Origin: Eledone cirrhosa
Taxonomy: Eukaryota
Direction of reading: 5' to 3'
Assembly: GCA_964016885.1 (NCBI GenBank)
Contig: OZ024748.1
Coordinates: forward strand, 56,482,001 to 56,546,000
Length of the DNA stretch: 64,000 nt
The notes under the pieces were generated by a model. That model made no database searches. It saw only the letters and a list, made by a program, of their open reading frames with translations, and was not told where the DNA came from. This document shows positions 27,133 through 27,254 of the stretch, piece after piece. The position numbers and the translations under genes were made by a program. Positions within the stretch are counted from its first letter, which is position 1. Each line of letters opens with the position of its first letter.

Positions 27133-27254
27133 TTTGGAGTGAAGCAACTGGGCGTGTGTTTCTTATTGCCAACATGACCCTCCCAAAGTATAACAATATC
27201 GGTTTCAACACACGTTTTCAGATAAAGAATCTTGCTAAACAAATTCAGAAACGA
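27133..27254 (+). mobile_element. PLE tail fragment (MTLPK family, subfamily A)
   Basis: Near-identical to the reverse complement of 19426-19550; inside (TA)n. Confidence 0.75.

Follow-up and report, generated by a model that had tools for sequence, protein, structure and literature searches.

The 64-kb window analysed here, a TA-rich stretch of the Eledone cirrhosa genome, raises the question of why a dispersed repeat should end in what reads as the beginning of a gene. An ATG at 27174 starts 27 codons that run straight into (TA)n, as direct reading confirms, and the original prediction took these codons to be the N-terminus of a Penelope-like element (PLE) protein, copied from a tandem or circularly permuted RNA running from 3' UTR through a hammerhead ribozyme to the ORF start. 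The flagged repeat is real, was correctly read and is of an already known kind: it is a PLE tail, found here in two new octopus families (referred to hereafter as A and B).

A 30-mer spanning the ATG has 22,064 exact matches in the genome (0 for its reversed control) and the 122-mer at least 41 (40 of 539 candidates scored); the repeat is therefore not a product of chance. Within the window, the copy at 19506(-) differs from that at 27174 at a single one of the 81 coding bases (CGT/CGA), and ATGACCCTCC is present at 8621(-), 8946, 38706 and 49268, each time with a B-type upstream region, followed at 8621 and 38706 by AAGTATAACAAT, all as had been stated. The further claim, that the tail lies downstream of a hammerhead at 8.7 and 19.6 kb, stands in part: it holds at 19.6 kb, where the core at 19679 (-) is upstream of the tail, and for the tail at 8946(+), but fails for 8621(-), the core at 8730 being on the + strand. 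This latter core is damaged, with AAAA instead of the family GAAA. The 27.1-kb copy has no hammerhead and keeps only ~45 nt upstream of the ATG, whereas the 19.5-kb copy extends 705 nt upstream, through the hammerhead motif and 3' UTR to the end of a GIY-YIG domain (Table 1). Two other elements were seen in the window: a repeat at 9060-9240 and 21208-21385, with inverted arms (CTGAGCTCAAGCCGTTTCGA...) between TA tracts and a common tail, which is probably a third fold-back PLE family, and a reverse transcriptase (RT) fragment of 393 aa at 28943-30121 (+) from a LINE-type non-LTR element.

Table 1. Features of families A and B in the 64-kb window (unit positions count from the ATG)
Feature	Position	Strand	Remarks
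Family A pseudo-LTR/5' UTR, last ~45 nt	27128..27173	+	5'-truncated solo arm, abuts (TA)n
Family A long tail, ORF +1 to +82/86, 27 codons	27174..27259	+	97.7% to unit 1-86
Long tail (+1 to +86) of 790-nt family A copy, then (ATT)n	19421..19506	-	
3' UTR/pseudo-LTR of 790-nt family A copy	19507..19984	-	19507-20211 = unit 4272-3569, 98.9%
Minimal type I hammerhead motif	19640..19684	-	CUGAAGA core 19679, helix II, GAAA
Likely promoter: GCGCATGCGCA + CAAAATGGCG	19731..19777	-	from sequence; short-arm pile-up 5' of second motif
GIY-YIG endonuclease domain, C-terminal ~75 codons	19985..20211	-	
Family B left arm, short tail (+26)	8596..8687	-	
Family B right arm, damaged hammerhead (8730), tail to ~+19	8695..8964	+	head-to-head with left arm
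Family B solo arm, short tail (+25)	38622..38730	+	
Family B solo arm, tail to ~+19	49206..49286	+	

The identity of the peptide is settled by the elements that it opens. Two outcomes had been named as counting against a PLE origin, the lack of any PLE ORF beginning with the peptide and a dN/dS near 1, and neither materialised: the search for full-length elements found intact ORFs starting with it in both subfamilies, and the 27 codons of A and B give a dN/dS of 0.21 (pS 0.42, pN 0.12, 21/27 residues identical), with 0.17 for the RT-endonuclease part. At endonuclease-end loci the peptide goes on as NIVSLSQANK... in 3 of 30 (one with Ala for Thr at residue 2), and wider stretches hold uninterrupted ORFs of 1,265 aa (L061) and 1,267 aa (L063). 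The segment at 27174..27259 terminates at the long of two start sites (see below) and then enters (TA)n, and its peptide is that which opens the 1,265-aa ORF. Both ORFs read, in order, N-terminal domain, Asn-rich insert, RT (DKSG, YVDD), C-x4-C-x2-C linker and GIY-YIG with CCHH; the GIY-YIG motifs (VVY..C..C..YIGET) and those of the RT (YVDD, DKSG) were read directly in the 1,265-aa ORF. The family A unit measures 4,272 nt from ATG to ATG. Family B (269 read-through matches, unit of 4,145 nt) has ORFs of 1,208-1,210 aa in six units, opening with the B form of the peptide.

By domain order and motifs, families A and B are canonical C-terminal endonuclease-positive (EN+) PLEs of the Neptune/Nematis type. 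They carry what marks EN+ PLEs in general, namely a single ORF with RT and C-terminal GIY-YIG, pseudo-LTRs from partial tandems with an inverted 5'-truncated partner, a minimal hammerhead motif (recognised from sequence) in the pseudo-LTR, and an optional 3' tail carrying the ORF start on one end, here of 58-60 nt and not 30-40; target-site duplications are unreadable, since both insertion ends lie inside (TA)n. Under the clade definitions set out in PMC8557442, the linker (CIDKKCITC in A, CTNRKCIIC in B) together with a CCHH made of two Cys in the GIY-YIG core and two later His places them with Neptune/Nematis (CX2-5CxxC linker plus CCHH). Penelope/Poseidon elements are without such a linker, which is present here; Naiad/Chlamys membership is contradicted by the C-terminal endonuclease and the hammerhead, and that of the Hydra clade (no CCHH, <3 kb, CxCX5C linker) by the CCHH and the 4.1-4.3-kb unit. 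Nor are these non-LTR retrozymes, which are small non-coding units, the unit here being coding and autonomous.

Profile searches contributed little: Pfam returned no family at E<=0.1 for the full ORF and no match for the 27-mer peptide, and the PDB gave the ORF one weak match only (intron-associated endonuclease 1, E=0.12). Among 73 homologues, one (P0070) carries PF00078 and PF01541. The nearest named protein match is from Octopus vulgaris (70%), for which the parts of the repeat annotation in PMC13282606 drawn on here report recently active Penelope-like families without such detail. Two database entries in the P0066/P0047 set deserve a remark: an O. vulgaris leucine-rich-repeat protein model contains a piece of the element (79% identity over 21% of the query), and a bacterial MAG includes a full-length relative, probably animal DNA that entered a metagenome bin. 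The low-complexity Asn/His/Thr-rich insert between N-terminal domain and RT (L061 aa ~260-470; L268 ORF aa ~245-410) is unlike in A and B, varies in length from copy to copy and recalls the N-rich inserts of Adineta PLEs. ORF pieces of unrelated Penelope-like families lie beside A or B copies at L039, L076, L079 and L084, so that several PLE lineages share these TA tracts; one family A insertion has an LTR retrotransposon as its neighbour, with Gag and protease-RT ORFs at L062:686-2805 (-).

We then considered where insertions end. Outer ends were read in the first 100 listed 30-mer matches on C1 with their neighbours, an unselected sample from which 113 of 121 arms were kept (the other eight being family B or spurious anchors). 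They fall at two fixed places within the ORF start: 56 arms are short (~+26), 52 long (~+86), 4 end elsewhere and 1 is a read-through. Arms occur in head-to-head pairs according to a simple rule, one short with one long, followed by 33 of the 34 classifiable pairs in the sample (36 pairs, with 1 long+long and 2 unclassifiable). Of 41 apparent solos, 5 have beside them a tiny arm of the other type. The same rule is obeyed by long family A insertions (24/27 and 13/13 further, 37/40 in all) and by family B pairs (9/9, with long ends at +84 or +69-71); exceptions are L105, L106, C1526, L199 and the family B pair at 8.6-8.9 kb of the window, which is short+short. Every outer end, read directly in A and B, sits on a TAT/ATAT run of the template, which suggests 2-5 nt of pairing with a nicked TA tract, although the ends lie inside that tract and such microhomology is thus inseparable from the target sequence. 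Stable RNA structure across the two start sites was not significant (z -1.1).

Either arm of a pair may reach deeper into the element: among 33 pairs the short arm is deeper in 16, the long arm in 15, and 2 are equal, which excludes a simple fold-back for about half of the pairs. In 8 of the 33 the two arms have ends no more than 25 nt apart, where shuffling gives 2.4 (p=0.002). Some pairs turn, with equal arms, in a natural AT palindrome at unit 4190-4216. Near-equal inner ends are also seen deep in the ORF (L224 672/666, L229 667/675, L241 275/279, L180/L181 853/853, L044 3296/3275, L050 3283/3288), as if both RTs had met one RNA break. Three identical insertions at C5:12.57-12.93 Mb (L024, L025, L026) also have identical flanks and are consequently segmental duplicates, not separate events.

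The inner ends of short arms are not evenly spread. They cluster at unit 4026-4044 (-247 to -229), with 14 stops from 12 insertions against 2.3 expected (p=3e-6 after correction for 18 windows), at a site just 5' of AAGATGGCG/AAAATGGCG and below GCGCATGCGC; both motifs are kept in A and B despite otherwise unlike UTRs. We take GCGCATGCGCA and CAAAATGGCG to resemble NRF1 and YY1 sites. The cluster is likely to mark the start of transcription, and Penelope transcription likewise begins inside the pseudo-LTR (PMC2377424). Where both arms of a pair reach the site, none of 10 pairs has one arm stopping there and the other passing. Among 83 arms of long insertions (a set selected for length, with arm ends read by hand) there is no stop at 4026-4044, nor in any of 37 second-or-later passes; older subfamilies account for 13 of the 14 stops, so that the contrast between long and short insertions is confounded by subfamily age and length selection. 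Family B, in a small and selected sample, does not reproduce the pile-up: of 22 arms at risk, 2 stop near the motif. Taken together, the short-arm pile-up and the lack of stops in long arms are such that two template classes seem to exist, of which only one has a 5' end. Apparent ends at unit 3876 were discarded as alignment breaks in a variable-length repeat.

Between this site and the ORF lies the hammerhead motif, ~170 nt upstream of the ATG, in which the core CUGANGA...GAAA is common to A and B and the helix II sequences are unlike. For the copy at 19640..19684 the cut is predicted after 19645. An Rfam scan of the window gave 0 matches at gathering scores, hammerhead motifs included, and the fold alone scores a z of -1.4. 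The junction is identical in 122 of 128 units; no ligation scar was seen at the cut in these 128 units, and RT stops at the predicted cut show no excess (3 vs 1.8 expected). Further along, unit 4220-4260 (window 19519-19559, -) has AATAAA/ATTAAA ~50 nt before the ATG and then a GT-rich run, a polyadenylation-signal layout that would give the transcript a terminal repeat; no such layout was found at the matching place in family B.

The predicted circular permutation relative to the ORF (3' UTR, hammerhead, ORF start) is borne out by insertions that extend to about three seamless units, the longest arms, scarless at unit boundaries, measuring 2.8 units (A) and 3.1 units (B). How such units relate to one another was read from their haplotypes in 52 insertions comprising 243 segments, once low-complexity zones, the ends of tails, 10 nt at each inner end, L223 and unrelated copies nearby had been masked or dropped. 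The difference between segments is 0.056% inside one arm, 0.071% from arm to arm of an insertion and 0.39% from insertion to insertion. Variants found in all overlapping segments number 135 of lineage type and 38 private; 13 lineage variants (7 of them in one L099 patch) and 86 private ones are confined to a single segment, and 3 occur in some segments. At IC4 position 257, both units of one arm carry a variant that the other arm lacks. No fewer than six haplotypes coexist and are hardly ever mixed. Such sharing is better explained by repeated copying of one monomer than by separate tandem insertions; from the seamless arms and the haplotype common to all units of an insertion, we infer that tandems arise in one event from one source, a single unit probably being recopied nearly every generation.

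There are exceptions. At position 3417 of L233 the inner unit lacks a variant that the outer unit shares with the other arm, a pattern that fits a linear multimer. Two near-identical templates are mixed in L110 and L114, and L099:4811-6879 has seven sites of another haplotype (unit 2482-2986) in one arm only, which either gene conversion or a switch of template from one RNA to another would explain; the pattern of one RNA per event thus has exceptions. A-to-I editing was considered as a source of the private all-unit variants, of which 8 of 18 were A>G at first, and was ruled out on the larger set (8/38 A>G, 11/38 G>A, transitions being generally enriched).

It is probable, on this evidence, that the repeat is the outer end of a PLE insertion, that its ends at +26 and ~+86 come from internal RT starts and that insertion proceeds broadly as follows. 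The endonuclease would cut both strands of a (TA)n tract, and each free 3' end would pair with an AT run of 2-5 nt in the RNA, at +26 for one end and at +84/86 for the other. From there cDNA would be primed backwards via 5' UTR, hammerhead and 3' UTR into the ORF, and the two cDNAs, joined at their inner ends, would leave an insertion whose two arms stand head-to-head, one short-tailed and one long-tailed. For long insertions the template would behave as endless, one monomer being copied for up to about three rounds, which would regenerate pseudo-LTR and promoter at each cycle; a second template class, with a 5' end ~240 nt before the ATG, would yield short insertions. Most copies, including that at 27.1 kb, would have aborted early and be dead stumps.

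What makes the template endless is a matter of lower confidence, and the sequence evidence fits a circle and end-to-end template jumps alike. A circular RNA is our tentative suggestion, with the hammerhead as the obvious candidate for the point of closure; that a linear RNA is instead copied by efficient end-to-end jumps seems unlikely. Doubtful as a whole is the complete model in which an autonomous element would use a 4.3-kb hammerhead-closed circle for rolling-circle, two-primer reverse transcription at a double-strand break, guided by microhomology to (TA)n at two ORF-start sites. Were the circle reading true, it would be the first genomic proof of the circle proposal of 2014, from a young family of 22,000 ends, and would account for the regeneration of pseudo-LTRs and promoters in PLEs. 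Back-junction reads, which had been suggested as a check, are non-diagnostic for a circle because genomic tandems hold the same junction.

A long linear RNA could also arise by read-through of a multi-unit donor arm, to be copied by RT unit after unit (Frangieh et al. 2024). Donors with several units do exist, the unit differences at L233 position 3417 and in L114 stand in an order that a linear RNA permits, and unprocessed RNA was the principal substrate in vitro (PMC11167929). Arrays templated in this way could only get shorter each generation, however; new mutations appear in one segment at a time (86 cases), yet of 189 recurrent variant occurrences 173 extend to every segment, and long arms show no stop at the likely start in 37 later passes though most donors are little over one unit. 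We consider such a multimer rather unlikely. Less probable again is that tandems were assembled by separate insertions (the original interpretation of pseudo-LTRs; PMC2377424) or by later duplication, their units being made identical by gene conversion or by polishing of the assembly. Conversion could explain the L099 patch, but the junctions are seamless, with internal tail or TA remnant absent, the copies are very young (0.39%), single-segment differences persist, private variants contradict the family majority and the six or more haplotypes are scarcely mixed.

Fold-back self-priming, in which the cDNA turns back to build the second arm (Arkhipova et al. 2013), would account for the equal-armed pairs at the 4190-4216 palindrome and for the 8 of 33 pairs with near-equal arms. 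It requires the second arm to be a subset of the first, and the short-tailed arm is the deeper in 16 of 33 pairs; the comparison of arm depths largely refutes fold-back for most pairs, and we regard it as very improbable. That the 27 codons encode a functional small peptide is scarcely credible: the frame is open and shows synonymous changes in many copies, yet it has no stop of its own and enters (TA)n at varying lengths, and the conservation that it shows belongs to the full ORF that is its source. The DNA evidence argues against both separate tandem insertion and fold-back.

The flagged feature is in itself ordinary for Penelope-like elements. It is valuable for testing: with intact ORFs, multi-unit insertions and several haplotypes in one very young family, the circle, jump and multimer models can be separated. 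Already in print are the ORF-start tail, the two RT start sites and the possible circular template (PMC3846280, PMC11167929, PMC4209133); what differs here is the 58-60-nt tail, the ends on AT runs and the evidence from haplotypes and arm ends on the template. No test of PLE tandems by haplotype turned up in the passages of the literature searched, and the regeneration of PLE pseudo-LTR tandems is left open in the parts of PMC2377424 considered.

Among known systems, Pen2a_Av of Adineta vaga (PMC3846280) has a pseudo-LTR that holds the first 12 ORF residues, extended to 22 by an optional tail. As here, this tail is on one of the inverted pseudo-LTRs and the ORF has asparagine-rich insertions; the tail is 31 bp there and 58-60 bp here (9 and 28 residues), the Asn-rich insert is N-terminal to RT here, unlike in Pen2a_Av, and a single copy compares with more than 22,000 ends. 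Self-priming, proposed for Pen2a_Av, is unsupported in our families. Another is PAc/Poseidon of Anolis carolinensis (PMC11167929), in which the tail is set in vitro by two RT start sites within the ORF start, both strands of an AT-rich target are cut and extended (as proposed for our families), a hammerhead lies in the pseudo-LTR and organisation is tandem. The start sites of PAc are near +111-118, those here at +26 and +84/86; the PAc hammerhead overlaps the ATG, ours lies ~170 nt upstream. The source text considered reports no target homology at the PAc start sites, whereas ends here fall on AT runs matching (TA)n. For this lizard element, hammerhead cleavage is described as dispensable for insertion in vitro and RNA-seq reads ending at the cut site as absent; a dimer is predicted, and multimeric mRNA is a proposal.

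Like Neptune/Nematis elements (PMC8557442), families A and B combine RT, CX2-5CxxC linker, GIY-YIG with CCHH and hammerhead, and insert into microsatellites with an inverted 5'-truncated partner; a one-sided tail of 30-40 bp is general among PLEs, and that here is twice the usual length. The hammerhead resembles other PLE hammerheads in being minimal type I with a long helix II (PMC4209133), a source that tentatively gives PLE hammerheads a role in providing circular RNA templates for more-than-unit reverse transcription. Their role is termed a mystery in PMC7761336, and RNA circles are reported for small non-autonomous retrozymes (PMC7761336; bioRxiv 10.64898/2026.07.22.740005), whereas the element here is autonomous and 4.27 kb long, with haplotypes and arm ends as the support for a circle. 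Penelope of Drosophila virilis (PMC2377424) has a 34-bp repeat at the ORF start, often also at the 3' end, and shares with our families a pseudo-LTR promoter (a likely one here) and partial tandems with inverted flanks. For Penelope, tandem insertions were inferred, with no obvious regeneration of the pseudo-LTR in the text considered; here, the units of an insertion share their haplotype, which points to a single event.
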